Part shown: positions 1-47,625 of the stretch, piece by piece
Numbering within the stretch: position 1 is the first letter of the stretch
Layout: every line of letters begins with the position of its first letter
Assembly (NCBI GenBank): GCA_964598845.1
Contig: CAZRDM010000006.1
Coordinates: 38,049-102,048, forward strand
Reading direction: 5' to 3'
DNA: 64,000 nucleotides
DNA from: an uncultured Candidatus Bathyarchaeia archaeon
Lineage (GTDB): Archaea > Thermoproteota > Bathyarchaeia > 40CM-2-53-6
Made by a program: the position numbers and the translations under genes
Notes under the pieces: model-generated
Told to the model about the DNA's origin: nothing
Seen by the model: the letters and a program-made list of their open reading frames with translations, nothing else
Databases searched by the model: none

Positions 1-345
1 CAAATTGTCCACAATAGGCCCGAAGCTGCGCAGAGCGAACGTGGTTGGCACGAGAGAGCCGTGACTCTGCTCGTTCAAAGTTGTCATAAGGCTGATGCCT
101 TAACCAGCACATAACACGAACCTGACGATTCGATATAAGCGGATAAACTGTGTTTCACACAGGCGCCTTAAAATGTCTAAACAAACATGCGGCAAACCTG
201 GCATGCAACTTTTTTCATCAATCAAAATCGATTCACGGCTACTAACCCAGGCATCGCGCACCAGGTCGATCCTGCCCACGTACTCAAAACAGGGTGCCTC
301 GCGGAGTAGAGTATATCACAACAAGCCTGCCACAAAGTAGGATCG

Positions 346-1467
346 GTGGAAATGACTTCTGATGAAAGTAGGAAGCGCTCGTACAGTGTCCGGCTTGGAA
401 GACTAGCGTCGGCCATCCGTGAAAGCGGCCTTGATGGGATCGTTCTAGTTCCTGGACCCAACCTCAGATACTATACGGGCGTGAACTCGCTACTCTTGGA
501 GAGACCGTTTCTCTTCCTCTTACCGAAAGAGGGACAATCACATCTCCTCGCGCCGAAACTCGAATCAGGACCGTATCGAAGAGGCCCGATCCAAATGATG
601 ATCCACGACTGGACTGATTCTGAGGGACCGTCCCGAACCTTCGAGGAGCTTACGCAACATGTTTCGATCAAAGGGAAGTGGGGACTAGAAGGGAGAGTCC
701 CGTTTCGGTTCGTACACATCCTCCTGAAGTATGCTCACCCGGACTTGGAAGATGCGGAGCCCTTGCTGGGAAGAATCAGAGAGACCAAAGATCCTGAGGA
801 GATGCGCTATCTTCAACAAGCTGCATTGATTTTGTGCAGATCGCTCCTGAGATTCCCGAACATGATCAGACCTGGGATGACGGAACTGCAACTGGCGAGA
901 GAGTTGATGGAGGAAATCTACTCGAATGGCGCGGAGCACGTTGATGAGGTTCTGATTCAGTCTGGTAGAATGGCGGCAGACCCACACCACCTCCCTTCCA
1001 CTAGGAAGTTGCGACGTAAGGAAAGCATAGTCGTCGACGCTACGTGCCAGTTTGCCGGATACTACGCCGATATCACTCGAACCTTCATCCTAGGTCGCGA
1101 TGAGAACTTTGACAGCATCTACCTAAGCGTCCTTGAGGCACAAGAAGCTGCTCTCAGTACCTCAAAGGCTGGGGAGACGGTAGGAGCAGTCGATTATGCT
1201 GCGAGAAGTCGCCTCGAGCAGAATCAACTTGGTGAGTTCTTCATCCACCGCACCGGTCATGGGCTCGGCCTCGAAGTTCATGAGCTCCCCTACATAGTTC
1301 AAGATGGGAGAGAACTGCTTGAGCCAAGAATGGTTTTCACGGTAGAGCCTAGCGTTTACTTTCCAACTAAGATGGGTGTGAGGATAGAGGACGACGTTCT
1401 GGTGACTGACAGCGGCCGCAAAGTCTTGACAAGATCCCTACCGAAAGGATTGGGCTGGTGGCGTTAG
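346..1467 (+). CDS. M24 family Xaa-Pro aminopeptidase / prolidase
   Basis: 373 aa ORF with the M24 metal-binding signature HRTGHGLGLEVHE, a creatinase/prolidase N-terminal-like region and a C-terminal E..E pair. Confidence 0.8.
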   Translation: MEMTSDESRKRSYSVRLGRLASAIRESGLDGIVLVPGPNLRYYTGVNSLLLERPFLFLLPKEGQSHLLAPKLESGPYRRGPIQMMIHDWTDSEGPSRTFEELTQHVSIKGKWGLEGRVPFRFVHILLKYAHPDLEDAEPLLGRIRETKDPEEMRYLQQAALILCRSLLRFPNMIRPGMTELQLARELMEEIYSNGAEHVDEVLIQSGRMAADPHHLPSTRKLRRKESIVVDATCQFAGYYADITRTFILGRDENFDSIYLSVLEAQEAALSTSKAGETVGAVDYAARSRLEQNQLGEFFIHRTGHGLGLEVHELPYIVQDGRELLEPRMVFTVEPSVYFPTKMGVRIEDDVLVTDSGRKVLTRSLPKGLGWWR

Positions 1468-1890
1468 GCACCAGATCGCTAAACGTCTTCCTTAGAAATG
1501 GCCGGGCAGCCCTCAGTATTCGCCTCATTGAATGGATTTCGGCATTTGCTGAGCCGATCCGAAAAGATGCGTGTTTCCCCCGTGCGAAGGATTACCGGTA
1601 TTCTAGTCTCCCGCCAGCGTGTATTCTGGCTCTGTGTCCTTCGCTACATCTACAACAATCTTGACAAGCGCCACAATAGCTGCAGATGAAATGGGCTTCC
1701 TTCTTGCATATGGGGCACGTTGCGAAACGAATCTCGGTCATAGGATTGATTACCATTCTTTCAGGCGCTTAAGGTTCCCAGTGAGCTTGCATATTTGTTG
1801 ATGGGCATGTTCAACCAGTGATACTTACCTGTAGCATTATGCTCGGAGAGGTGTCGAATTCTTAATGCCTCAACTGAAGCTGGGTAATTC

Positions 1891-2235
1891 TTGCGTGTCT
1901 CCGGGTTGGATAGTGGAGGGCTCGCCGCACTCATCGTAACCCAAGTGGGGTTCGGCGGATCTATGGGATTTCTTCTGGGTTACGGCATGAAGAAACTTAC
2001 GACATTCTTTCTGAAAATTGTGGCGCTCACTTCATCGTTGTTCATGCTAGGCATTGCTTGGCTGGCATCCATCGGAGTCGTCACGTTGAATCTCGACGCC
2101 TTCACTTCAACGTTGGAGATTGGTCTCGGAGATGCGATAGCGAATCTAGTGACCTTGTTTGCGTTTCTTGCTCAGATTCTCCCGATAACAGGAAGTTTCG
2201 CGCTCGGATTCTACGCAGGGGCAAGAAAGGGTTAG
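1891..2235 (+). CDS. small hydrophobic membrane protein, function unknown
   Basis: 114 aa ORF with 3-4 predicted TM helices and no recognisable motif. Confidence 0.3.
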   Translation: MRVSGLDSGGLAALIVTQVGFGGSMGFLLGYGMKKLTTFFLKIVALTSSLFMLGIAWLASIGVVTLNLDAFTSTLEIGLGDAIANLVTLFAFLAQILPITGSFALGFYAGARKG

Positions 2236-2303
2236 TCTCGAGGGAAGAAAATTCGGACGGAAGAGAATAAACTGCATCTATATGCAAGCCGGCACAGTGT
2301 TAC

Positions 2304-2819
2304 TTGAAGTTCGAGCCAGAGGCCGAGGATATGAGGAGGATGCTTCTTGCGGCCTTGGGTATACTCATTGTCATTTCGGTTGTAATGGGCTATATTTTGG
2401 TTCTTGCCTCCAACGAGGCACGGATAAGGATCTCCGGCGTAACTCTGACCGTTGAGCTCGCTAACACGCCGGATGAACAAGCAAGAGGTCTCTCAGGTCG
2501 CGAATCCTTGGCCCCGGACCATGGAATGTTATTCGTCTTTGACCATGAAGCTCGCTGGAGTTTCTGGATGAAGAACATGAACTTCCCCTTGGATATCATC
2601 TGGTTTGACTCCAAGAGGCAAGCGGTTTTTGTAGAGCAGAACTTGAAGCCCTGCAGTCCGCAAGCCTGCCATGTTTACGCTCCTTCCACCGCCGCGATGT
2701 ATGTGCTCGAAGCGAACGCAGGGTTCGTGAAGACTCATGACATCCACTTGGGAACGACATTCGTCTTCTTGAACTGGTTTAGCTTCGAAGTCAGGGTTCT
2801 CGGAACCAAGGAGCGTTAG
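2304..2819 (+). CDS. DUF192 domain protein with N-terminal TM anchor
   Basis: motif LFVFDHEARWSFWMKNMNFPLDIIWFD is typical of DUF192; the N-terminus has a hydrophobic helix. Confidence 0.6.
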   Translation: MKFEPEAEDMRRMLLAALGILIVISVVMGYILVLASNEARIRISGVTLTVELANTPDEQARGLSGRESLAPDHGMLFVFDHEARWSFWMKNMNFPLDIIWFDSKRQAVFVEQNLKPCSPQACHVYAPSTAAMYVLEANAGFVKTHDIHLGTTFVFLNWFSFEVRVLGTKER

Positions 2820-2847
2820 GGGCTTGAACATATAGGCCGGAAAGATA

Positions 2848-3273
2848 ATGCCTGTAGACATGCCAGTAACCCGGTTAACCTATGAGGAATTCGCCAAGAC
2901 TGCGCGAGAATATCCGGATGATCCCTTCTCAACATTCGTGCGAGAAGGGAGGGTAGTTTACGTCTACGCTTTGACGCGAGACCTATGCAGTGGATGTGAA
3001 ATCCAAAGGCCTCTCTATGATGAACTGGCACACAAAATCCAGGAAAAGTATGGTGAGCGCGTCAAGTTCGCGGCGATCCACGTCTCGCAGCAAGAGGAGT
3101 TTCGAGATAAGCTCAGAGATTTCCGAAGGATGTTGAGGTTTGCTGCATATCCTACCTATCTGATTCTTCTAAGAACTGAGGTTGGCATCCTCGAGGCATA
3201 TCGGGGTATAGAGCCTCCCATGGAAGAGATCGCGCGAAGTATCGATATAGCAATGGAATTGGCAAACCGCTGA
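2848..3273 (+). CDS. thioredoxin-fold protein (CSGC motif)
   Basis: 141 aa with a C-S-G-C dithiol motif at thioredoxin-like spacing (VYVYA..CSGCE) followed by a hydrophobic core. Confidence 0.45.
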   Translation: MPVDMPVTRLTYEEFAKTAREYPDDPFSTFVREGRVVYVYALTRDLCSGCEIQRPLYDELAHKIQEKYGERVKFAAIHVSQQEEFRDKLRDFRRMLRFAAYPTYLILLRTEVGILEAYRGIEPPMEEIARSIDIAMELANR

Positions 3274-3348
3274 TAAGCGGTTCGACTCCTCAAAGAAAGG
3301 ATTTCCTCTCTACAGACTGATTACGCTTCTCTACAGCCTTCCAGAAGC

Positions 3349-4260
3349 TTACGTGGATCTACTCGCTGGTTTGACTGTTAGATAGACTCCTGCTAGGATT
3401 AGGATTGCGCCCAGAGCCACGTTTGCATCGAGCACCTCACCCAGTACAACCCAGCCCATTATCAGCGCAATTATTGGTGTGACGAAAACAATGAGAGATG
3501 TGTTTGTGGCAGTGGCGGCGGTCCTAGTTAGAAGCCAGTACAAACCAACAAACGCCAACGCCGATCCAACGATCCCCAGATAAAGCGTCGCCGCGATGGC
3601 AATCGGCGTGAATTGTAGGGTAGAATTCCGTTCTATGAGTAAACCAACTGATGACAAAACCACCGTTCCAGTAATTGCCTGTACGAGAACGTTAGCCGCA
3701 GGATCTATTCTGTGTGCGTGTAGTTTGACGACGACACTCGCTGACCCCCCTGAGAGAGCGCTTCCAACAACTGCGAGGCCTCCATAGAGAGAGTTGTGGA
3801 CGCCCGAACTCTGCGACGCAATGATATCTCGCCAGAATATTGCGGTCAACCCCACAAACGAAGCGACTATCCCTATCGCCTTGGACTTCGTTAGCCTCTC
3901 GCTTGGGATCATGAAATGGGCGAAGATGACGACGAAGAATGGCAAAGTGGCGAATAGGAGCGAGGAAATGCCTGAGGAGATGTATTGCTCTCCCCAGAAG
4001 ACCAATCCATAGGGCAAGCTGATCTGGAAGATCCCTAAGAACAGCATCAGAATCCAAGATGAAAGATCTTTTGGGACCCGAGCGTGAAGCAGCCTCACCA
4101 AGACCAGTAGCGCAAGGCTTGCTACCGCGAAGCGGATGCCTGCGAATAGGAAGGGAGGAAGAAACTCAAGTCCGATCTTGATGGCTAACCAAGTGGAACC
4201 CCAGATCAGACAGAGAGTTGCGAAGACGACCCCCGAAGTTCTGAACTGCAAATGCCGCAA
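3349..4260 (-). CDS. EamA/DMT superfamily transporter
   Basis: 303 aa with about 10 TM helices and the duplicated 5-TM EamA pattern. Confidence 0.75.
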   Translation of the reverse strand: MRHLQFRTSGVVFATLCLIWGSTWLAIKIGLEFLPPFLFAGIRFAVASLALLVLVRLLHARVPKDLSSWILMLFLGIFQISLPYGLVFWGEQYISSGISSLLFATLPFFVVIFAHFMIPSERLTKSKAIGIVASFVGLTAIFWRDIIASQSSGVHNSLYGGLAVVGSALSGGSASVVVKLHAHRIDPAANVLVQAITGTVVLSSVGLLIERNSTLQFTPIAIAATLYLGIVGSALAFVGLYWLLTRTAATATNTSLIVFVTPIIALIMGWVVLGEVLDANVALGAILILAGVYLTVKPASRST

Positions 4261-23876: not shown

Positions 23877-23983
23877 GCCGGGGTGGCTCAGCTGGTAGAG
23901 CGCCAGCCAGGCTAAAGGGGCGAAACTCATAATCTGGAGAGCATTGGGCCCAGAAGCCGCGGGTTCGATCCCCGCCCCCGGCA
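23877..23983 (+). tRNA. intron-containing tRNA, probably elongator tRNA-Met (CAU) with two non-canonical introns
   Basis: acceptor GCCGGGG/CCCCGGC, D-arm GCUC-AGCUGGUA-GAGC, T-arm GCGGG-UUCGAUC-CCCGC, discriminator A. An anticodon-loop-like CUCAUAA is flanked by CCAG(A)/UCUGG only after excising about 17 nt from the anticodon stem and about 16 nt from the variable region. The 107 nt length means about 33 nt of intron. Confidence 0.55.
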
Positions 23984-38769: not shown

Positions 38770-39409
38770 TTCGTCGTCCCTTTGATTAATCCCCAGTAAA
38801 TACTGACCGCTTGAAGAAAAGCATCTTCCAATCTGCCGCAACGTAGTACACAGCAGTTCTCGACCTTCTTGGTCAGTACCGAGACGGAGAGGTTTAAGGA
38901 GGACCAGTTTAAGGTCTGCACCTAGGACTCATTCTTTCAAGGGAAACTGAGGTAGAACATGTCGCCCTCTCTGTCATACTGACTATCAGTTTTCTCCTTT
39001 CCAATCTACAGGCGACCTCTTTATCATGTCTGTGAAGTAGTTCGTAACAATAGACCCTTCTTGATCCGGGTCCTTGATAACGACAGCGAGGTACTTGGGG
39101 CTCCTTGGCGTAGATTCGTAGAATCTGCAAAGAACGCGAATGTCGGGGGCTCCGCCTGCTGTAGCAACGTCTTTCTTGGCGAGCGTCCCCCATCAGCCAA
39201 GACCTCTGGATGAGTCTGATCCGCTTGTCGTCGTAAGGGAGCCTCTCCCAAACAATACTCAAGTTGCTTCCTCCTCCAAAAGTGAGAACCCTGATAATAT
39301 GAAGGCAAAGTCCCTTTAGGAAATTGGTTTCTTGGAGGTCTCTCTCGTGAGATTCCGAGCAGCAACCATTCTGTTGCTGAAATCGAAAATCCGTTTAAGC
39401 GGCTATGTT

Positions 39410-39541
39410 TGGAGCCCCGGGCGGGACTTTCAGCGAATGAAAGTTCGCTTTTGAACCCGCGGCCTTCGCCTTTTCGTTGTCCAGTTACCAAGGCGGCGCT
39501 TTTGGCGTTCTATTGAATCTACCAGGCTGAGCCACCGGGGC
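39410..39541 (-). tRNA. tRNA-Thr (anticodon GGU) with three introns (D-loop, anticodon loop, T-loop)
   Basis: reverse-complement fold: acceptor GCCCCGG/CCGGGGC, D-arm GCUC-AGCCUGGUA-GAGC after removing 18 nt, anticodon stem CCGCC/GGCGA (one mismatch) with loop UUGGUAA after removing about 16 nt, T-arm GCGGG-UUCAAAU-CCCGC after removing a 23 nt hairpin-forming insert (AGCGAA..UUCGCU), discriminator U, CCA encoded. The ORF-track entries 38909-39491 are artefacts over this gene. Confidence 0.65.
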
Positions 39542-40200
39542 GGAGGAACTGAATCCAGCGGTGGAGCGCTAATTAACCTTGACCCCGGGTATTCGTCATT
39601 AGGTCGGGGAATTATTCGGTGCGGTGAATCTCTGATAGTATGCTTCGGGACATGAGCTCCTCAATCAGATCACTTCGCCTCGCCCCAGATCCCGTTCTCA
39701 GAAGCGGGACAGCTATGTGAGGACTAGGATTGATGTTCTTCAGGATCAAGATTCGTGTACATCGATTCTCTTGGAGATATCTGTGCATTGTGCAAGTTGG
39801 TTACACAGAATTGCGGGAGGTAGTTGCTGGATTGCTTTCGCTCTCAGAGGATCGATCGCGGCAAGAACCAAGCAGCAGAATTGTTCCATTAAGGCTGCCC
39901 TGAGCCTTGCTCCTTTCCATTAGTAAAAAATGCTTATTAGTGGTCATCCCGAGTCCTTTGATGGATCGTTGAACGAAAGGGTTCCGATACGCGTAGTACT
40001 GGTCCTGAGACGGCCCTTGCTATCTCTTTGTCAATGCTAGGCTTGAAAATTCGCTTGGAATGGCATTTTGACATCGCGTGATATTTTTGCGCTGAAAAAT
40101 GGTATAATTCGACTTTTACCAATCACCAATGTGATAACACTTGACCAAATGCTTAAGAGCGCTCCTAAGGGCAACCCTGTTTCCGTGTTAAATCACTCAA

Positions 40201-40206
40201 AGGAGG
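40201..40206 (+). promoter_or_regulatory. Shine-Dalgarno-like AGGAGG 12 nt upstream of the 40219 ATG
   Basis: seen directly in sequence. Confidence 0.5.
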
Positions 40207-40218
40207 ATATTTAGGAAA

Positions 40219-40986
40219 ATGGTCAAGAGATGCCCATCATGCGGCTACAATAACCGCGACGATGCAGCATTCTGTTCAAGTTGCGGCGCCTCACTTGTAG
40301 GCGCAGTGCCCCCCACACTGAAGCCAGTCCCATCAGTTCGAGTTGTGACGCCAGTTGCACCAGGCGGACCGATTAGGGTTCCACCACCGGGACAGTGCTT
40401 CTATCACCCGAACTTGCCGGCGGTCTATGTCTGCAACCGCTGTGGAAGAGCGATCTGCCGAGACGATTCGAAGGCATACATGGACTTGGTCCTCTGTCCT
40501 CAGTGTTATGCTGGTGTAGTGCCTGTGGTTGCCCCACCAGTACAAGTTCCGGCACCAGCATATGCCCCACCGCCAATGCCAGCCGCACCGGCACCAGCAA
40601 TCATGGCCCCGTATCCACCGCCTTTTGTTGCACCAGCAGCCCCAAGAGCCCTCTGGGGATTCATACTCTCAATGATAGCTGGAATCCTCGTGATCCTTAA
40701 CGCTGCTGCATTGCTCTCGAGCCCATTCTACACCTTGTGGTCAGGTGTATTCTTCTGGTTACCAGTCATCGATCCTTCACCAACTCACGGCCTAGTCTTC
40801 GCTATCGGTGCAATAATCGGACTCATCCTAGTAATCGGGTCGATACTCATGTTACTTGGATACGGTACTATTGGAAGCATAGTCGTCTTCCCGCTGGCGG
40901 TTCTGAGTCTGATTATTGGCGGAGGTTTTGTGGCCGGCTTCGTTCTCGGCGTGTTGGGCGGAATTCTCGGCATGCTGGGAAGGTAA
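40219..40986 (+). CDS. membrane-anchored zinc-ribbon + B-box/RING-like zinc-finger protein (candidate small E3-like factor)
   Basis: N-terminal zinc ribbon CPSCGY-x10-CSSCG; second module C-x2-H-x8-C-x2-C-x4-C-x12-C-x2-C (CFYHP..CNRCGRAIC..CPQC); a Pro/Ala-rich linker, then 3-4 TM helices. Confidence 0.6.
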   Translation: MVKRCPSCGYNNRDDAAFCSSCGASLVGAVPPTLKPVPSVRVVTPVAPGGPIRVPPPGQCFYHPNLPAVYVCNRCGRAICRDDSKAYMDLVLCPQCYAGVVPVVAPPVQVPAPAYAPPPMPAAPAPAIMAPYPPPFVAPAAPRALWGFILSMIAGILVILNAAALLSSPFYTLWSGVFFWLPVIDPSPTHGLVFAIGAIIGLILVIGSILMLLGYGTIGSIVVFPLAVLSLIIGGGFVAGFVLGVLGGILGMLGR

Positions 40987-41030: not shown

Positions 41031-42578
41031 GTGTGGCCTGTGTCCTATGTTAGCATCTGGAAGCCTGTCAACGACCGTATTGTTCAGGCTTCACGTGAAA
41101 CCGGAAATGAGATCATAGGACTGCTCCTCGGCAAACTCGAAGATGATACGATAATCATCGAAGACTCGATTACGGGCGATTACTTCGCGGAAGAGCATCG
41201 AGTGACTCTGCCTGCAGCAACACTCGCAAAGATTGCAGACGGCATAGTCACTGGGCGAATCAAAGGCAACATTGTGGGCTGGTATCACTCACACACTAAA
41301 GACGGACTCTTCTTCTCGGAGACCGACATTCAAACCCAGAAGCAACTGCAACAGTTTTCGTCCCTCGTCACCGGAATGGTTGTGGACGCCAACACGGGAG
41401 AGGTCGGATACTACAGAATCGACCCGCAGACTGCCAATTCCATCCGTTTATCCGATGATAGGGTTCGGATCTACAAGGAGGCGAGTGAGGCGATTCCTTC
41501 AAGAGTGATAGCGAGAACCCGGGTTCGTCCCACTCCAACCATTGAAATTCGCGAGCACGCGACCCAGCGGGGAACTCCGACTCGGAAAGTGGTTATCGGA
41601 ACGGTCTTGATAACACTCGCAGCGTCCGCAATACTTCTCGGCGCGTTGTTCCTCAGGGGCCCTACAGAGGCAGAGAAACTAAACGTAATCCTTGCGCCTG
41701 TCTCAAGCGCCACGGTTGGAACGCCCATTGAGATCAAAGCCAATGTTACGGGTCAGGTTCGCAATGTAACCCTAGTCTACGCTACTTCGGGTGCTTCATT
41801 CAAATCGATGGACATCAGTCCGCGCTTACCCGGCGAGTATGCCTACGTAATATCGGGCCAAGAAGTTACAGGGAACATCGCCTACTACATCAAAGCAATC
41901 GACACTTCTGGCAACGTGGTTCGTACGGATCTGATGCACATTCCAGTTTCAGACTACCTGATCGTCGCGAGGACGGCGGAACTGACAGTTTACAGGAACC
42001 GATCTGCCACAGCCCACCTCGCCTTGCTCCCAATAAACGGTTTCAGCCAATCAGTGACTCTAAGCGCGTCAGCACCCCAAGGACTCACTTTGACGTTTAC
42101 TCCGAACCCAGTCCTCGGCGGAACGCTAGAGCTCACGATGAATGCTGTAGCCAGCGACGACATGCCGAATGGCACCTTCCCTCTTTCCATAACTGCCACC
42201 TACTCTCCCCCCGAGGCTCCGCGGGTAACCCGTCAAACAACAATCGCCATCACAATAGCAGACTTCGATCTGCAGGCTTCTCCGACCTCAAAACAAGTCT
42301 CAAGGGGAACCACATCCGTCGCCTACACCTTGACCCTAACAATACAACAAGGCTTCGTAGATCCCATTACGGTCACCGTTTCGGGAATCCCACCCGGCGC
42401 AAGATATCAGTTGACAACCACAAGTACGACGATGTTGGCTAGCGGCGCAGGCTCAAGGACGATAATGCTCCAAATCACGTTAACCCCAAGCGTCAAGCTC
42501 GGAAACTATACTTTATCCATAAGTGCAACAGGTGGAACCATCGTCCATACTGAAACTGTGGAACTCATAGTAAGATAG
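41031..42578 (+). CDS. JAMM/MPN+ (Rpn11/Mov34-type) metalloprotease fused to a TM helix and a long extracytoplasmic beta-rich (Ig-like repeat) domain
   Basis: JAMM motif E..GLLLG ... GWYHSHTKDGLFFSETD (ExnHxHx7Sx2D). The start is placed at the GTG/TTG at 41028-41031 because the 5' part of ORF 40737-42578 overlaps the upstream gene. A TM segment lies near residue 290 and is followed by about 300 aa of Thr/Ser-rich beta repeats. Confidence 0.8.
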   Translation: MWPVSYVSIWKPVNDRIVQASRETGNEIIGLLLGKLEDDTIIIEDSITGDYFAEEHRVTLPAATLAKIADGIVTGRIKGNIVGWYHSHTKDGLFFSETDIQTQKQLQQFSSLVTGMVVDANTGEVGYYRIDPQTANSIRLSDDRVRIYKEASEAIPSRVIARTRVRPTPTIEIREHATQRGTPTRKVVIGTVLITLAASAILLGALFLRGPTEAEKLNVILAPVSSATVGTPIEIKANVTGQVRNVTLVYATSGASFKSMDISPRLPGEYAYVISGQEVTGNIAYYIKAIDTSGNVVRTDLMHIPVSDYLIVARTAELTVYRNRSATAHLALLPINGFSQSVTLSASAPQGLTLTFTPNPVLGGTLELTMNAVASDDMPNGTFPLSITATYSPPEAPRVTRQTTIAITIADFDLQASPTSKQVSRGTTSVAYTLTLTIQQGFVDPITVTVSGIPPGARYQLTTTSTTMLASGAGSRTIMLQITLTPSVKLGNYTLSISATGGTIVHTETVELIVR

Positions 42579-42616
42579 TTTAAGCTCGACCGTGGAAATG
42601 CCAAATTAGCATGAGC

Positions 42617-42624
42617 GGAGGTGA
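42617..42624 (+). promoter_or_regulatory. Shine-Dalgarno GGAGGTGA 10 nt upstream of the ATG at 42635
   Basis: seen directly; it supports the internal ATG as the true start of the ubiquitin-like gene. Confidence 0.5.
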
Positions 42625-42634
42625 AACACCCCAA

Positions 42635-42877
42635 ATGAAACTCTTCGTGCAGGCGCCGATCGGTCCTCAGACGGGTCTAGCGGAAATAGATGTGATTCCC
42701 GATCACACTGTCGCTGAGATTAAGCAGCAGGTCTGCCAATCCTTCGGCGTCGATCCTACAACTGTTGCGCTCATGTACGGAGGCGCAATACTCGACGAGA
42801 ACACGACAGTCTCAAGGCTTGGTATACCTGAAAACGCTCAACTCGCCCTCATGCCATACACCATCATTGGCGGATAA
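42635..42877 (+). CDS. ubiquitin-like beta-grasp protein with C-terminal Gly-Gly
   Basis: the 80 aa MKLFVQ...LALMPYTIIGG* shows the Ub pattern (MQIFVK / hydrophobic core / C-terminal GG immediately before the stop). Confidence 0.8.
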   Translation: MKLFVQAPIGPQTGLAEIDVIPDHTVAEIKQQVCQSFGVDPTTVALMYGGAILDENTTVSRLGIPENAQLALMPYTIIGG

Positions 42878-42889
42878 GGCTGGTCGAAA

Positions 42890-43474
42890 ATGGACATTTC
42901 ATTGCTCTACAAGGAGAAGAATCTGCTCAACCATCAGTTCCCCACAGTAACCTCGCTGAACGACCCTCCAACGCAATTCGAAGGCCTCATACGCTGCGAG
43001 AAGGGAGAGGTCAAGAAACTCGCAGAGAAGGGAATCTGGCCATTCACCGAGTACGCCAACTGGAACCGCTTCCGACTCGAACTCTCCCCTGAATATCCCC
43101 TGAAACCACCGATAGCAACATGGCTCAGCAACATCTCACACCCCAATATCGTCCCGAACATAGCGAATGCAGTATGTGTTTCCATATTGGGCGAGAAATG
43201 GGATCCTAGGCTGAAGCTGATCTCCGTAGTCAACGCATTTCATTACCTCCTGACCGATCCCAATCCTCAGAACGTCTTCGACCACCCCCGCTCCCTTAAG
43301 GCAGCCAACGTCTGCCGATCCTACGGATTCCCGAAGATGACAAAGAATCAGCAGACAATGAGGGACCCAGACGACATAGTCCGATTCAACATTGTGCCAG
43401 TGCCTAGATTGACATCCCTCCCGTCCGCACCCGGGGACATAGTAAGGTTTTCGATTCCTGGGAGAGAACGCTGA
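42890..43474 (+). CDS. UBC-fold E2-like ubiquitin-conjugating enzyme
   Basis: HPN motif and catalytic Cys region HPNIVPNIANAVCVSILGEKWDP, followed by LTDPNPQNVFDHP (UBC helix-3 PNP motif). Confidence 0.75.
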   Translation: MDISLLYKEKNLLNHQFPTVTSLNDPPTQFEGLIRCEKGEVKKLAEKGIWPFTEYANWNRFRLELSPEYPLKPPIATWLSNISHPNIVPNIANAVCVSILGEKWDPRLKLISVVNAFHYLLTDPNPQNVFDHPRSLKAANVCRSYGFPKMTKNQQTMRDPDDIVRFNIVPVPRLTSLPSAPGDIVRFSIPGRER

Positions 43475-43482
43475 GCGTCGTT

Positions 43483-44733
43483 TTGATGCGCGTGAGAGCC
43501 TCTCTCCCCTCCTACAAGGAAATCGAGGTGGAGCTGAACTCAGGAAAGACCGTGGGAGAACTCAAACAGCTCCTATGCTCGAGACTGGGAATAGAACCTG
43601 AACTCACGAAACTCTTGCTTCACAATGAAGCACTCTCTGAAAAGTCACGCATATCGAAGCTCAAAGAAATCGACACCCCACTGGTCATAGACTACCTTTG
43701 GGCCCGCCATCTAATTCTCTGGGGACCTGAAGGTCAAAGAAGAATTCGGTCATCGTCGGTCCTGATCGCCGGCGCAGGCGCCATCGGTAACGAAGTTGCG
43801 AAGAACCTCGCGATGCTGGGTGTTGGCAGGCTATTTATCGTTGACCGCGACAGAGTTGAAATGTCCAATGTCAGTCGGATGATATTCTTCGAACCGAACG
43901 ATTTGGGTATGAACAAGGCAGAAGTGCTAGCCAAGAACATTCACAGGAAGTTTCGTTTCGTCGAGACGATGGCCTTCAGAGGCGAATTGGAAAATCTCCC
44001 CCACAAGTTCTATTTGGATTCCGATGTCCTAATCTGCGGACTTGACAATGTAGCCTCAAGGATTTTTCTCACACAACTCTGCCGGAAGTATGACATCCCG
44101 ATGGTGGACGGAGGAATAACTGGACTCAACGCGAGAGTCCACATCTTCATCCCTCCCGACGACGCCTGCCCCATCTGCATCTTTCCACAGAGTCAATATT
44201 CGCAGATAATCGGCTTGCGCAATCCCTGTGACGCACCCGTGGAGCAAGAAGCCGTCCCGTCCTTCGCAACCTCAATATCACTGGTTTCCTCAATCCTGTC
44301 ACAGGAAGCCATCAAACTCATCTTGGGCCTGAAGGAGCAGCGGCGACGCGCAAGATGGCCCGAGAATGTTGGCCAGCCGTTAAAATCTGTTCTCTTCATC
44401 GATCTCAAGAACAACCGATACTCTCCAATGGACCTGAAGCGAAACGAGAGATGCCTCGTATGCGGAAGACAAGGGACCGCTAGGGAACTTGTGCCACGCC
44501 TCGAGCTACCGATCAAGAACGTCCGTGACTCAAGGAGAGATGTGGAGAAAGTGATTCGAATTGCCGTTAATGCAGAAAACAGAAGCCTCACAGTCTTCTC
44601 CGAAACATCTCGCGGGACCAGAAGACTAGACCTGTCCCGTCTCATGGAGAGTCTTGAAAGAGGCGATTACCTAAGAATCCTAGCTGAGGACAAGAATGGA
44701 GAACTACATGAATCAATAGTCAAACTGACGTAG
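43483..44733 (+). CDS. E1-like ThiF/MoeB/UBA-family activating enzyme with N-terminal ubiquitin-like domain and CxxC zinc motifs
   Basis: Rossmann VLIAGAGAIGNEVAKNL, DRDRVEMSNVSRM (E1 D-x-D-x-V-E-x-SN-x-R), CPICIF / CLVCG zinc pairs. The first about 75 aa have a beta-grasp-like pattern. Confidence 0.8.
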   Translation: MMRVRASLPSYKEIEVELNSGKTVGELKQLLCSRLGIEPELTKLLLHNEALSEKSRISKLKEIDTPLVIDYLWARHLILWGPEGQRRIRSSSVLIAGAGAIGNEVAKNLAMLGVGRLFIVDRDRVEMSNVSRMIFFEPNDLGMNKAEVLAKNIHRKFRFVETMAFRGELENLPHKFYLDSDVLICGLDNVASRIFLTQLCRKYDIPMVDGGITGLNARVHIFIPPDDACPICIFPQSQYSQIIGLRNPCDAPVEQEAVPSFATSISLVSSILSQEAIKLILGLKEQRRRARWPENVGQPLKSVLFIDLKNNRYSPMDLKRNERCLVCGRQGTARELVPRLELPIKNVRDSRRDVEKVIRIAVNAENRSLTVFSETSRGTRRLDLSRLMESLERGDYLRILAEDKNGELHESIVKLT

Positions 44734-44784
44734 CAATCGTTTGCACCCAATTGCCGCTCGCGAGGAAGCAATGATTCAGTGAAG

Positions 44785-44940
44785 ATGCTCGGGGACTCGA
44801 AGCTTACGCGGAAGTTTCAGGTGGCGATCCCGAAATCTGTGAGAGAGATTTTGAAGTTGCACACTGGCGACCTTCTGGTCTTCGTGAAGAACCACGATGA
44901 AATCGTGGCGAAGAGAGGTCGGGTTGAGATTGAGCCATGA
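44785..44940 (+). CDS. AbrB/SpoVT-type swapped-hairpin DNA-binding protein (51 aa)
   Basis: KFQVAIPKSVREILKLHTGDLLVF matches the AbrB/MazE fold consensus; below the ORF-track cutoff. Confidence 0.5.
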   Translation: MLGDSKLTRKFQVAIPKSVREILKLHTGDLLVFVKNHDEIVAKRGRVEIEP

Positions 44941-45557
44941 GTCTACCCGATCACGCGCCTATGAGACTGGCGCCATGCGTCTAAGGTTCGCGGTCGCTTT
45001 CGCTGTGATGGCTGGGCTTGTGGGCTTCTATGGCTTCGCCCAGGAATAGGGCGATCTTCTTGTCTTATCGACCGATGTGATCTTCGTTATCGTTTCAGGC
45101 GTCTCCGCTCTTTTTGCGGGACTTGTACTTCGCAGGTGGGGGCTTGATCGGTGCGGGTTCGAGTTGGATCTTTATTGGGGTGGTACTCGTAACATTGGGC
45201 AACATCACCTTCTCTCTGGGGACGCTCGAAGAATGGTACTATTCAGGCCATCCCTCGTAACTGCTCTATCTGGCTGGATACATCAGCCTGGCTCTAGGTT
45301 TTCTCGCTCAAAGATCAGTATTTGACCTTCTTGAGCCGGGAACGCGGAGAGGTTGAGTTGGGTTGAGTTCCTCTAAGGGCAGATTGGTTCATGGAACAGC
45401 CAACACCGAGGATCCCGAGGAGGCGCCATACCATCTAACATGTCAACAATAGGGCTCTAGACAATTCCATTCAGATGCCCAGAACAAACCAAAGCTTCAA
45501 AGAAAGAGCGGGAATAGTTAAAAAATCCATCATACCAAAGAAAGCCCGGGTTCCATT

Positions 45558-45950
45558 ATGGCCGTATGCCACGTATGCGGTAAGTCGAATGCTGACGATG
45601 CTAGGTTCTGCTTCAGTTGCGGCACACAACTCTCTCAAACCCCGCCTGTAAAAGTGGAGGTGAAATCGCCACTGGCCGGTGTTCCCCCTGCGCCTGCAGT
45701 CCCCCCCATGTATACTCCCAGGGCATTGCCCAGACCGGGAATGTGTTACTACCATCCCGATCTGCCGTCTTCCTTCGTGTGTTCGAGGTGCGGCCGATCC
45801 ATTTGCGCAGGATGCTACAAGCCCTACGGCGTACTCAGTTTCTGTCCAGAATGTTTCTGGGGATTAGCCCCCAAGCTTGGTTACCAAGCGGCGCAGTATC
45901 TACAGTACGCAATGGGGCAGCAGCAGGAACAGCCTCGATCCTTATTCTAA
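45558..45950 (+). CDS. soluble zinc-ribbon + B-box/RING-like zinc-finger protein, paralogue of the 40219 gene
   Basis: CHVCG-x10-CFSCG, then CYYHP..CSRCGRSIC..CPEC with the same spacing as in 40219-40986; a Pro-rich linker and no TM domain. Confidence 0.55.
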   Translation: MAVCHVCGKSNADDARFCFSCGTQLSQTPPVKVEVKSPLAGVPPAPAVPPMYTPRALPRPGMCYYHPDLPSSFVCSRCGRSICAGCYKPYGVLSFCPECFWGLAPKLGYQAAQYLQYAMGQQQEQPRSLF

Positions 45951-45954
45951 TCGG

Positions 45955-47625
45955 TTAGGCCAAGCGCCCCTCTTTCTTCAATTTCTCCGCTACTTCTTTG
46001 AGTTCATCCACTGAGATTCGGAGATCCTTCGCTGCTCTACTTAGAGATATTACTCCTTCGTGTTTGACGATGTAATCGTAGACCTTATCCTCTAACGAGA
46101 TTGGCGGCGTCGGCCCGCCCAGAGGTGCTCCGCATTTTTGACAAAAAGTGGCACCCTGCGGCATGCGACTCCTGCAACTGCTGCACACCAAGGTTACTCG
46201 CGCAGGTGCTGGAATAGGACGAGGCATTGGTGTCCTTGGCCCAATCATCCCGCGCCTGTAGGCTATTCCAATGCCAATAGCAAGTGCAGCGATAGCAACG
46301 GCGCTACCTCCAAAAAGGCTGATCAGGGGGAGATAATCAATAGTCCACACAGCCTCAACAACATACGGTCCGTCCACAATCAGTGTCCAAGAATCATCAG
46401 TCTGGGTTAGGCTTCCTCTCTCAGGATCGAGATGCCAGCCTGTGAGTGTGTAGGAGATCGGCCACGTTCCGGCGGTAGTTGATGACGCTATCTTGGCGAC
46501 GGAACCTTTATCGTACCATCCGGAACCTGAAACTGAACCATAGGAAGAACGAACCTCGACGTAGTATTGAGTCTCGTACGAAAGTATGACCTTGCGCGCT
46601 TTGTCCATGAAGACAGTGACAGAGACATCTGAGGATGAAGAACCATCATCGATCCAGGCGACAAGACTCAGTCGCTCAACGGTGCTTAGATTGATGATGA
46701 TCGGGGCAGGTCCAAGTTGCACATTCTGGTTCGCGTCATACCAGCCCGTATGCGTTTCATTGAAGGATGTTGATATGCTCACTGGCTCGTATTGAACTGT
46801 GAGCAAGTACTGAGCGATATAATGGGCTACGATCACATTCGGACGATCCATTAACACGTTTCCGGTTGAGGATTGCCCTGAGTATGCACCGCTCCAGTGG
46901 CTGAATCTAAGACGCGTGTCTCCGGTTGTGGGCACAATTGCAGCTGCGGCGAAATCTGCTTGACTATTGGCATCGTACCACCCATCGCCCCTCAGACCGC
47001 TGACGTTGGGTGGATCCGATTCGATGGTAAGAGAGTACTGTGTCTTCCATATCGCTATCGCCTTCTTTGGACTGTTCATCAGAATGCCGTCCGATGTCAA
47101 CCCCCCGCCAGAGATGTCTCCAGCCCAGCCTGTGAAGACATGCCGAATTCCAACACTCTCGCTGATCTCTCCTTCCCTGAGGCTTGCATGGACTATTGTC
47201 CCATCATCGTACCAGCCCTCACCTTCCGCAGAGCTGTAGCTAGTCTCTATGGTGAGGTAGTACTGGGCGGTGTATGTGAATGTGTGATTGCCCGCTCCAC
47301 TGAATAACCATGACGTATCCTTCTCATAGTACCTGGCTCCGTCAAGCCCCACACTGTTCGGAACGTAATAGTCTACAGTAATTATGTGGGCGTTGGGCGA
47401 CGTCATGAATGTGAACGAACGCGTCTGTCCACCGCTCAAGGTGCTGTTCGGGGCGCCGTCAATGTAGATATCCGTGCTTATGGTCGATGGAAGACCTTGA
47501 ATCGTAATCGTCACTGTGTACGTCGTTTGTCCATTCACGCCCGATGTCAACGAGACGACCAGACTCAGGCATAGCACGGATAATGCTAGAATCCCTGTTC
47601 TCAATTGCAACTCCGGCCGTCTCAT
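45955..47625 (-). CDS. bitopic membrane protein: signal peptide + large beta-rich ectodomain + TM + cytoplasmic zinc ribbon + winged helix
   Basis: 556 aa; the N-terminal signal peptide and Thr/Ser/Gly-rich ectodomain are followed by a TM helix (AVAIAALAIGIGIAY), then CSSCRS..CQKCG and a C-terminal wHTH-like domain YDYIVKHEGVISLSRAAKDLRISVDELKEV. Confidence 0.55.
   Translation of the reverse strand: MRRPELQLRTGILALSVLCLSLVVSLTSGVNGQTTYTVTITIQGLPSTISTDIYIDGAPNSTLSGGQTRSFTFMTSPNAHIITVDYYVPNSVGLDGARYYEKDTSWLFSGAGNHTFTYTAQYYLTIETSYSSAEGEGWYDDGTIVHASLREGEISESVGIRHVFTGWAGDISGGGLTSDGILMNSPKKAIAIWKTQYSLTIESDPPNVSGLRGDGWYDANSQADFAAAAIVPTTGDTRLRFSHWSGAYSGQSSTGNVLMDRPNVIVAHYIAQYLLTVQYEPVSISTSFNETHTGWYDANQNVQLGPAPIIINLSTVERLSLVAWIDDGSSSSDVSVTVFMDKARKVILSYETQYYVEVRSSYGSVSGSGWYDKGSVAKIASSTTAGTWPISYTLTGWHLDPERGSLTQTDDSWTLIVDGPYVVEAVWTIDYLPLISLFGGSAVAIAALAIGIGIAYRRGMIGPRTPMPRPIPAPARVTLVCSSCRSRMPQGATFCQKCGAPLGGPTPPISLEDKVYDYIVKHEGVISLSRAAKDLRISVDELKEVAEKLKKEGRLA

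Follow-up and report, generated by a model that had tools for sequence, protein, structure and literature searches.

Archaeal ubiquitin operons are used to model how the eukaryotic ubiquitin system arose. In Caldiarchaeum, ubiquitylation in vitro depends on a small zinc-finger protein encoded in the operon (PMC5654768). Asgard archaea, too, have ubiquitin operons that encode a small zinc-finger ubiquitin ligase (E3). A 64,000-nucleotide stretch of contig CAZRDM010000006.1 from an uncultured Candidatus Bathyarchaeia archaeon (the whole stretch is called the window below) contains an operon of this kind, headed by a membrane-anchored zinc-finger protein (the membrane copy) and followed by a smaller soluble relative (the soluble copy). 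The question raised by this locus is whether these two proteins are the zinc-finger components of the ubiquitin pathway in Bathyarchaeia, and what type of zinc finger they carry. As described below, the pair is a conserved part of the operon, its second zinc-binding module can be classified as a B-box rather than a RING, and a role as E3-like adaptors is the preferred, still tentative, interpretation. The two genes and their parts are as follows.

40219-40986, + strand: gene of the membrane-anchored Zn-ribbon and B-box protein, 255 residues (open reading frame [ORF]; first gene of the ubiquitin operon)
40231-40284, + strand: N-terminal zinc ribbon C5-x2-C8-x10-C19-x2-C22 of the membrane copy (PF13240, 35.5 bits)
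40321-40353, + strand: linker motif K-P-V-P-S-V-R-V-V-T-P of the membrane copy (near-invariant in 55 orthologues)
40396-40506, + strand: B-box-type binuclear module C60-x2-H63-x8-C72-x2-C75-x4-C80-x2-D83-x9-C93-x2-C96 of the membrane copy (regular expression; zf-B_box is the best Pfam family)
40516-40647, + strand: Pro/Ala-rich linker of variable length in the membrane copy (indels and low conservation; predicted local distance difference test [pLDDT] below 50)
40648-40983, + strand: four-helix transmembrane domain with Gly-rich helices in the membrane copy (hydropathy, AlphaFold2 helices, many invariant residues)
45558-45950, + strand: gene of the soluble Zn-ribbon and B-box paralogue, 130 residues (ribbon 45567-45620, B-box 45744-45854)

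Both ORFs lie where an earlier sequence-only reading of the window had placed them, and the ribbon spacing (C-x2-C-x10-C-x2-C) and the spacing of the seven module ligands that it listed are exactly as it gave them. An eighth ligand position escaped that reading. The full module consists of four dyads, C-x2-H / C-x2-C / C-x2-[C/D] / C-x2-C, spaced by 8, 4 and 9 residues, and the eighth position is Cys in the soluble copy (C83-A-G-C86) and Asp in the membrane copy (C80-R-D-D83). Position 83 is Cys (CRDC) in the distant membrane orthologues P0119, L033, L037, P0202, P0208, P0211 and P0214. The ligands of the soluble copy are C4/C7/C18/C21 in the ribbon and C63, H66, C75, C78, C83, C86, C96 and C99 in the module. 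Every ligand, in ribbon and module alike, is invariant across the aligned homologues, 56 for the soluble protein and 55 for the membrane protein. When the six-frame translation of the 64 kb is searched with the module pattern, exactly two sites are found, which are the two zinc-finger genes. The two copies share 41% identity over approximately 100 residues (BLASTP E-value: 5e-23), and hhalign of the two families gives a probability of 99.8. These two ORFs are true paralogues, and a chance Cys-rich ORF is excluded by the conservation. Both proteins have the conserved domain PF13240 (Zn_Ribbon_1; membrane copy 35.5 bits, soluble copy 30.2 bits, cutoff 25) in addition to the B-box-type module, as expected for the double zinc-finger protein that had been predicted.

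To assess conservation of the pair, 30 species-representative contigs were retrieved with the ubiquitin-conjugating enzyme (E2) of the operon and not with a zinc-finger protein, so that the test of zinc-finger operon membership is independent. Twenty-six of these contigs are labelled Bathyarchaeia or Bathyarchaeota; the other four carry unclassified archaeon labels or seemingly mis-binned bacterial ones. The gene order zinc-finger protein with transmembrane domain, membrane JAMM peptidase, ubiquitin ending in Gly-Gly, E2 and ubiquitin-activating enzyme (E1) with a ubiquitin-like domain is found in 25 of the 26 Bathyarchaeia species loci. A B-box gene lies upstream of the JAMM gene in 25/26 loci with enough 5' sequence, and a second one lies downstream of the E1 gene in 22/27 loci with enough 3' sequence. 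At least one B-box copy is present in 29 of the 30 loci, the exception being a 3.2-kb contig cut at both ends. The soluble paralogue is thus kept together with the membrane copy in related genomes, which was the co-conservation check proposed in the sequence-only reading. Distant orthologues (module-profile E-values: 1e-13 to 1e-18) also head JAB-ubiquitin-E2-E1 operons (L039-L042). One further operon, L043, is built differently: it encodes a Zn-ribbon protein, a membrane JAB peptidase, a ubiquitin-E2 fusion, an E1 and further membrane proteins in a rearranged order. The fusion is a single ORF (L043 5225-5923) in which ubiquitin (...MVGG) is joined directly to the E2 domain, and judging from this arrangement the JAB peptidase of L043 would have to cut ubiquitin from its own E2. 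L043 also encodes a protein with ribbon, strand motif and B-box on a different membrane domain (DUF4190). The presence of the B-box protein in so differently built an operon suggests a functional link and not inherited gene order alone. A homologue search with this L043 variant (P0234) gave matches dominated by DUF4190 and no further ubiquitin-linked relatives. Taken over all loci, the zinc-finger pair is a conserved part of the ubiquitin operon in Bathyarchaeia.

The sequence-only reading left the second module as B-box or RING-like, and compared the protein to srfp of Caldiarchaeum (CSUB_C1477). In ligand arrangement the module corresponds to a B-box, with four dyads, 7-8 residues after dyad 1 and 4 after dyad 2. 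The family zf-B_box (PF00643) is the top Pfam family in all 31 module sequences scanned (best E-value: 1.3e-6), with the ANCHR-like B-box second. RING-type families match at most 13 of the 31, with E-values of at least 0.003 (zf_RING-like, best E-value: 0.0032). Whole-protein zf-B_box scores are 18.1 and 19.0 bits, and the isolated soluble module reaches 21.9 bits (Pfam cutoff 24.1). In the membrane copy Prok-RING_1 reaches 17.6 bits (cutoff 29.1); for zf-RING_5 the score is 13.5 (cutoff 27.9). The distant orthologue P0119 carries a precomputed PF00643 match. A module profile search of 1.84 billion representative proteins returned 478 proteins with E-values of 0.001 or less. The more distant among them have the same ligand spacing, and of 20 that were scanned, 9 exceed the Pfam cutoff for the B-box (24.6-53.5 bits). 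In these relatives the module forms the cytoplasmic N-terminal part of a membrane protein, frequently as tandem copies, and is fused to DUF4097 toastrack, Rce1-like CAAX protease, DUF4064, Yip1-like, DnaJ or kinase domains. Against solved structures, the single domain that the broad prokaryotic profile matches best is the B-box of TRIM28 (22.3 bits, E-value: 8.7e-4), followed by the B-boxes of MID1 (E-value: 0.011), PML and TRIM5 and the RINGs of RNF4 and TRIM21 (E-values: 0.01-0.4). The narrow module profile finds only short CxxCG-type matches (C2H2 fingers, TraR) in the PDB, and the whole protein only the ArnA ribbon (E-value: 0.011). In the first dyad of the module there is an invariant Tyr (C-x-Y-H) and in the last a mostly conserved Pro (C-P-x-C).

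The srfp protein is of the RING-H2 type (C3H2C3); its model, based on RNF38 and Praja-1, has a confidence of 99.8%, and the protein needs I30, W58 and R69 for activity (PMC5654768). The centre of the present module (C-x2-C-x4-C-x2-[C/D]) differs from the RING form C-x(1-3)-H-x(2-3)-[C/H] and has neither the C3H2C3 nor the C3HC4 arrangement. No RING-H2 pattern is found in the 64-kb window or within 10 kb in 37 related loci (L001-L037), which leaves the zinc-finger pair as the only candidate E3-like zinc fingers nearby. Because RING profiles score far under their cutoffs, a RING-H2 pattern is lacking and zf-B_box is the best match, the module is judged not to be orthologous to the srfp RING-H2, and the equation with srfp is not supported. 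Of the two labels first given to the module only the B-box one is retained: by ligand pattern and profile matches, it is classified as a prokaryotic-type B-box and not a RING. NCBIfam contains nothing useful for either protein. The earlier reading had named best hits to unrelated zinc-ribbon families, together with a predicted structure lacking cross-brace geometry, as evidence that would tell against it. Only the first half of this condition applies in part: the top whole-protein hits are indeed Zn_Ribbon_1 and DZR, but they cover the N-terminal ribbon only. The DZR double ribbon (PF12773) formally passes its cutoff (29.9 and 28.4 bits, cutoff 27.3) and was rejected, as the hit reflects the single N-terminal ribbon: in the membrane copy only profile positions 1-22 of 45 are matched (residues 5-26), and the match in the soluble copy is drawn out across the linker, from residue 4 to residue 99.

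B-boxes are members of the RING-like binuclear treble clefs (PMC4506424). AlphaFold2 models based on the two family alignments have mean pLDDT values of 59.7 and 62.9, with 50-72 within the module and 66-73 in the ribbon of the membrane copy. In the module, a helix starting at the last C-x2-C is predicted to follow three short strands, an order that fits a treble clef. Since confidence in the module is low, the cross-brace, two-zinc fold is assumed from B-box family membership as judged by sequence.

The membrane copy has more than 268 homologues, of which those with a source name are mostly from Candidatus Bathyarchaeia. Its conservation is about that of the E2 and exceeds that of the E1 and JAMM proteins. 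A GGAGG sequence is located 9-14 nucleotides ahead of its ATG. In 55 orthologues the four Cys and N12 of the ribbon are invariant, as are K35-V43 and P45 of the linker motif (T44 is not); the V-R-V-V core of this motif is beta-strand-like. Hydrophobic stretches lie at residues 140-171 and 186-255, and AlphaFold2 places helices at 145-164, 191-212, 216-234 and 238-253. The predicted membrane anchor is therefore correct, and the number of helices, given earlier as three to four, is four by hydropathy and AlphaFold2. The transmembrane domain matches no Pfam family (best: DUF6114, E-value: 2.3). R143 ahead of helix 1 and R255 at the end point to an N-in/C-in topology, in which the zinc fingers would likely be cytoplasmic alongside the E1, E2 and ubiquitin.

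The soluble copy has no transmembrane segment by hydropathy. A TTAAAAAA box is found approximately 35 nucleotides ahead of its ATG. The near-invariant P-P-V-K-V-E-V-K-S-P motif of the soluble family is the counterpart of the strand-like motif of the membrane family. The C-terminus of the family is [RH]-S-x-F at or near the end; here it is R-S-L-F (window 45930-45950), which from its sequence would fit the S/T-x-hydrophobic form of C-terminal docking motifs. Three public contigs with a sequence identical to that of the window leave the gene uncalled (L001 13340-13732), and its exact protein sequence is absent from a collection of 5.8 billion proteins, in which the best relative is 77% identical. 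With an intact ORF and 76 conserved homologues, the uncalled gene is likely an annotation gap.

The remaining genes of the locus are as follows.

41031-42578, + strand: JAMM/MPN+ metallopeptidase with one transmembrane helix and Ig-like extracytoplasmic domains (PF01398 JAB, E-value: 1.1e-11)
42611-42877, + strand: ubiquitin homologue (PF00240, E-value: 6.5e-11; translation ends in ...TIIGG)
42890-43474, + strand: E2 (UQ_con) with C-terminal tail (PF00179, E-value: 2.3e-14)
43483-44733, + strand: E1 (ThiF) with N-terminal ubiquitin-like domain (PF00899, E-value: 3.8e-49)
44779-44940: MazE/AbrB-like ORF, 53 residues (PF04014, E-value: 3.5e-6)
45955-47625, - strand: convergent membrane protein, 556 residues, with InlB-B-repeat ectodomain and cytoplasmic Zn-ribbon tail (PF13240, PF18998)

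The membrane copy leads a ubiquitin operon, as had been predicted. The components are those of an archaeal eukaryote-like ubiquitin operon, namely a ubiquitin with Gly-Gly directly preceding the stop codon, a UQ_con E2 with HPN and Cys, a ThiF E1 and a JAB peptidase, and this arrangement is kept in L004-L043. The start used for the JAMM gene is that called in L001, a public contig identical to the window; its product has 515 residues with the transmembrane segment at residues 184-211 (hydropathy). The ubiquitin-like domain of the E1 is matched by PF00240 at residues 10-60 (window 43483-43670 corresponds to E1 residues 1-60). Intergenic gaps among the first five genes are 8-45 nucleotides, with the JAMM gene starting 45 nucleotides after the membrane copy, and such gaps fit co-transcription of the five. 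The distance from the E1 gene to the soluble paralogue is 820 nucleotides here and approximately 160 nucleotides in relatives, because a MazE/AbrB-like gene has been inserted. This gene occurs only in the window-identical contigs and is absent from the 34 other loci L004-L037 (tblastn); it is followed by approximately 600 nucleotides with no called gene in the public annotations of these contigs. The region 44779-45557 looks like a recent insertion splitting the operon. In relatives the soluble gene directly follows the E1 gene and so is the sixth operon gene. No RNA element or tRNA was found near the operon genes. Approximately 1.4 kb 5' of the operon (38842-40218) has no called gene in the public annotations, no Rfam match and no tRNA, and contains short overlapping ORFs only. 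Elsewhere in the window, at 23877-23983 on the + strand, Rfam predicts a tRNA with a 107-nucleotide span (47.3 bits) that is unreported by ARAGORN and is probably an intron-containing archaeal tRNA.

In the E2, four elements, namely YPLKPP (YP[LV]KPP), HPN, the catalytic Cys and W-x-P-x-L, show no change or only conservative changes across 33 archaeal sequences. With a human UBE2D2 sequence as reference, the E2 appears by sequence to retain the canonical E3-contact positions, namely the hydrophobic residue in YP[LV]KPP and the invariant Pro in W-x-P-x-L. Its C-terminal extension (43330-43474, residues approximately 150-194) contains two D-[IV]-V-R-F-x-I repeats that are conserved across Bathyarchaeia. 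These repeats loosely resemble the V-R-V-V and V-K-V-E-V motifs of the zinc-finger proteins, and may be shared docking strands. The JAMM protein of the window has a cytoplasmic JAB domain, a single transmembrane helix and a long extracytoplasmic portion that is Ig-like. Its relatives have a polytopic, DUF998-like C-terminal portion instead (L004, L020) or are much shorter (226 residues in L006, 191 in L041). The convergent 556-residue protein has two hydrophobic segments and adjoins the operon in nearly all loci. Only its cytoplasmic tail is conserved in distant loci; this tail has a ribbon of the same Zn_Ribbon_1 type as the zinc-finger pair, and its end may be helical, possibly a winged helix. 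B-boxes are fused with Flg_new_2 (InlB-B repeat) in P0249 and P0216. These features hint that the convergent membrane protein may be functionally tied to the ubiquitin system.

The pair is proposed to be the dedicated zinc-finger components of a Bathyarchaeia-wide ubiquitin conjugation system, and most likely to act as E3-like adaptors (rough probability 0.45). The B-box region would bind the ubiquitin-charged E2 of the operon (or ubiquitin) and bring it to targets. The membrane copy would place conjugation at the inner membrane face, beside the membrane-anchored JAMM peptidase, which could reverse the modification, and the soluble copy would act on cytosolic targets. We infer the binding to E2~ubiquitin, the ligase-like activity and the nature of the targets; E3 activity and the targeting of membrane substrates, the latter suggested already by the sequence-only reading, are plausible from the genomic context. 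A bolder version, which is considered rather unlikely, is that the B-box proteins are true non-RING ligases, with the tethered copy ubiquitylating membrane or envelope proteins and the JAMM peptidase reversing this in an archaeal membrane-protein ubiquitylation cycle.

Several observations weigh against an adaptor or ligase role. The window proteins score below the zf-B_box cutoff (18-22 bits, cutoff 24.1) and far below all RING cutoffs. AlphaFold2 is unreliable in the module, and Foldseek, which ranks LIM domains highest, gives only E-values above 0.1. The last Cys is followed by an aromatic residue and not by an Arg/Lys linchpin such as R69 of srfp, and a central helix carrying a Trp like W58 would not fit into the module. 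The membrane copy is absent from L020, in which an aspartokinase gene lies upstream and the soluble copy is kept, and one subclade (L027, L029, L030, L031 and L036) is without the soluble copy. B-box proteins with transmembrane domains also occur with no ubiquitin genes nearby (L038, L044). Finally, PMC4506424, citing Burroughs 2011, assigns prokaryotic B-boxes to membrane-protein folding, stability and proteolysis and not to ubiquitin. The L038 and L044 proteins lack the ribbon, which suggests that the ubiquitin link is a trait of this subfamily and not of B-boxes generally. On the 5-kb contig L038, positions 183-3731 hold four consecutive genes for B-box proteins with multiple transmembrane segments and no Zn ribbon, and no ubiquitin genes; this four-gene run is a tandem expansion of the wider B-box family.

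The alternative that best survives, while still improbable, is that the membrane B-box protein is a partner of the JAMM peptidase that recruits or presents ubiquitylated proteins or precursors to it, or regulates it, and has no part in conjugation. The two genes are adjacent and each encodes a membrane-anchored protein, module relatives occur in fusions with domains of the membrane peptidase or stress kind (Rce1-like CAAX protease, DUF4097 toastrack), and the idea agrees with the view, given in PMC4506424, of prokaryotic B-boxes as partners in membrane-protein proteolysis. However, the soluble paralogue has no membrane anchor and sits after the E1 gene, away from the JAMM gene, and the B-box gene of L043 lies among E1-like genes, apart from the JAB gene. 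These two arrangements weigh somewhat against a JAMM partner. In addition, the adjacent JAMM product of L041 has only 191 residues, and L020 has a JAMM gene without a membrane copy.

Less probable again is that the proteins are ubiquitin receptors, in which the ribbon or strand motif binds ubiquitin in the manner of Npl4 zinc fingers (NZF)/RanBP2 or SUMO-interacting motif (SIM)-type strands, or that they are the main ubiquitylation target and mark a membrane site. The ribbon has RanBP2-type spacing with an invariant Asn (C-x2-C-x3-N-x6-C-x2-C) and gives weak Pfam Zn_ribbon_RanBP matches (E-values: 0.011-0.25), and Foldseek superposes it on the Nup153 fingers with a root-mean-square deviation of 0.5-0.6 A over 21-22 residues. 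The V-R-V-V and V-K-V-E-V motifs and the lysines K35 and K85 are invariant. Yet PF00641 scores only 11-15 bits against a cutoff of 27, and ribbons of this type abound in the membrane proteins of archaea. Npl4-type NZF fingers need a Thr-Phe dipeptide for ubiquitin binding, which is absent here (G-Y and K-S instead), as is the NZF-type Trp. Such a role would also leave the strictly conserved B-box unexplained.

That the membrane copy is a canonical RING E3 orthologous to the srfp of Caldiarchaeum and Asgard archaea is very improbable. The operon context is the same and the protein is small, alignments of its last four ligands to the RINGs of RNF4 and TRIM21 reach marginal E-values, and its dyads are spaced much like those of the srfp motif reported in 2011 (C-X2-C-X11-C-X2-C-X4-H-X2-C-X10-C-X2-C; PMC3082918). 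Against this, the pattern C-H-C-C-C-C/D-C-C, in which four residues separate dyads 2 and 3, is neither C3H2C3 nor C3HC4, the profile results given above favour zf-B_box throughout, and the distant relatives belong to a widespread prokaryotic B-box family. Equally remote is a system for anti-phage defence, similar to Bil or CBASS-Cap2, in which the zinc fingers would be sensors or effectors: the E1 adenylation domain matches the PADLOC E1-E2 (Cap2) and BilD models (E-values: 2e-17 to 1e-6), but defence is unlikely because only this E1 core is matched and six other proteins (the zinc-finger pair, JAMM, ubiquitin, E2 and the convergent membrane protein) match no PADLOC model, the window shows no compositional anomaly, and the conserved operon order and convergent neighbour with a variable upstream flank across 30 species-level genomes fit a vertically inherited core system.

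Bathyarchaeia are abundant in sediment and soil, and to our knowledge srfp of Caldiarchaeum is the only archaeal E3 tested so far. The Bathyarchaeia have a complete ubiquitin/E1/E2/JAMM operon with no RING and, in its place, a strictly conserved pair of Zn-ribbon and B-box proteins. Archaeal ubiquitin operons with a small zinc-finger E3 and prokaryotic B-boxes on membrane proteins are already known. The same is true of the duplication of the finger gene, which the sequence-only reading had given as a difference from srfp: Caldiarchaeum has two E3-like RING proteins (PMC6043591). Among open-access papers and bioRxiv preprints, no description was found of a Bathyarchaeial ubiquitin operon, of a B-box in any prokaryotic ubiquitin cluster, or of a pairing between finger and JAMM proteins that are both anchored in the membrane. 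If the pair are ligases or adaptors, the pre-eukaryotic range of zinc fingers in ubiquitin transfer would be wider than known, membrane-protein-directed ubiquitylation would have its first indication in archaea, and the published view of prokaryotic B-boxes as unrelated to ubiquitin would be contradicted. If they are true non-RING ligases, the link between B-box and ubiquitin, so far of the eukaryotic TRIM type only, would already exist in archaea. The 130-residue soluble copy is a convenient protein for biochemistry and a candidate non-RING ligase or adaptor from an abundant archaeal lineage.

Among known systems, the membrane RING ligases of the Hrd1 and Doa10/MARCH type combine a cytoplasmic binuclear zinc finger on a polytopic membrane domain with a soluble E2. 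They have RING or RING-CH domains and not a B-box, and no homology was found for the membrane domain; the likeness would be one of functional analogy only. The B-boxes of TRIM/RBCC proteins (TRIM28, MID1, PML and TRIM5) share the domain class and the link to ubiquitin ligases and are the best solved-structure matches, with marginal similarity; they end in His-x-His and stand beside a RING and a coiled coil, whereas the present module ends in C-x2-C and is accompanied by neither. The srfp of Caldiarchaeum is similar in being a small zinc-finger protein in an archaeal ubiquitin/E1/E2/JAMM cluster with a second copy in the genome, and, compared by its published motif, in having four Cys/His dyads (spaced 11/4/10, versus 8/4/9 here). 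It is a soluble RING-H2 protein, whereas the Bathyarchaeial proteins are of B-box type with an extra Zn ribbon and one copy is membrane-anchored. The closest likeness in pattern is to the prokaryotic B-boxes (PF00643), to which the profile search connects directly: they have the identical pattern C-x2-H-x8-C-x2-C-x4-C-x2-C-x9-12-C-x2-C and a cytoplasmic module N-terminal to a membrane domain. The Bathyarchaeial proteins differ from these in that a Zn ribbon and strand motif precede the B-box, and in that they are fixed members of an E1/E2/ubiquitin/JAMM operon.

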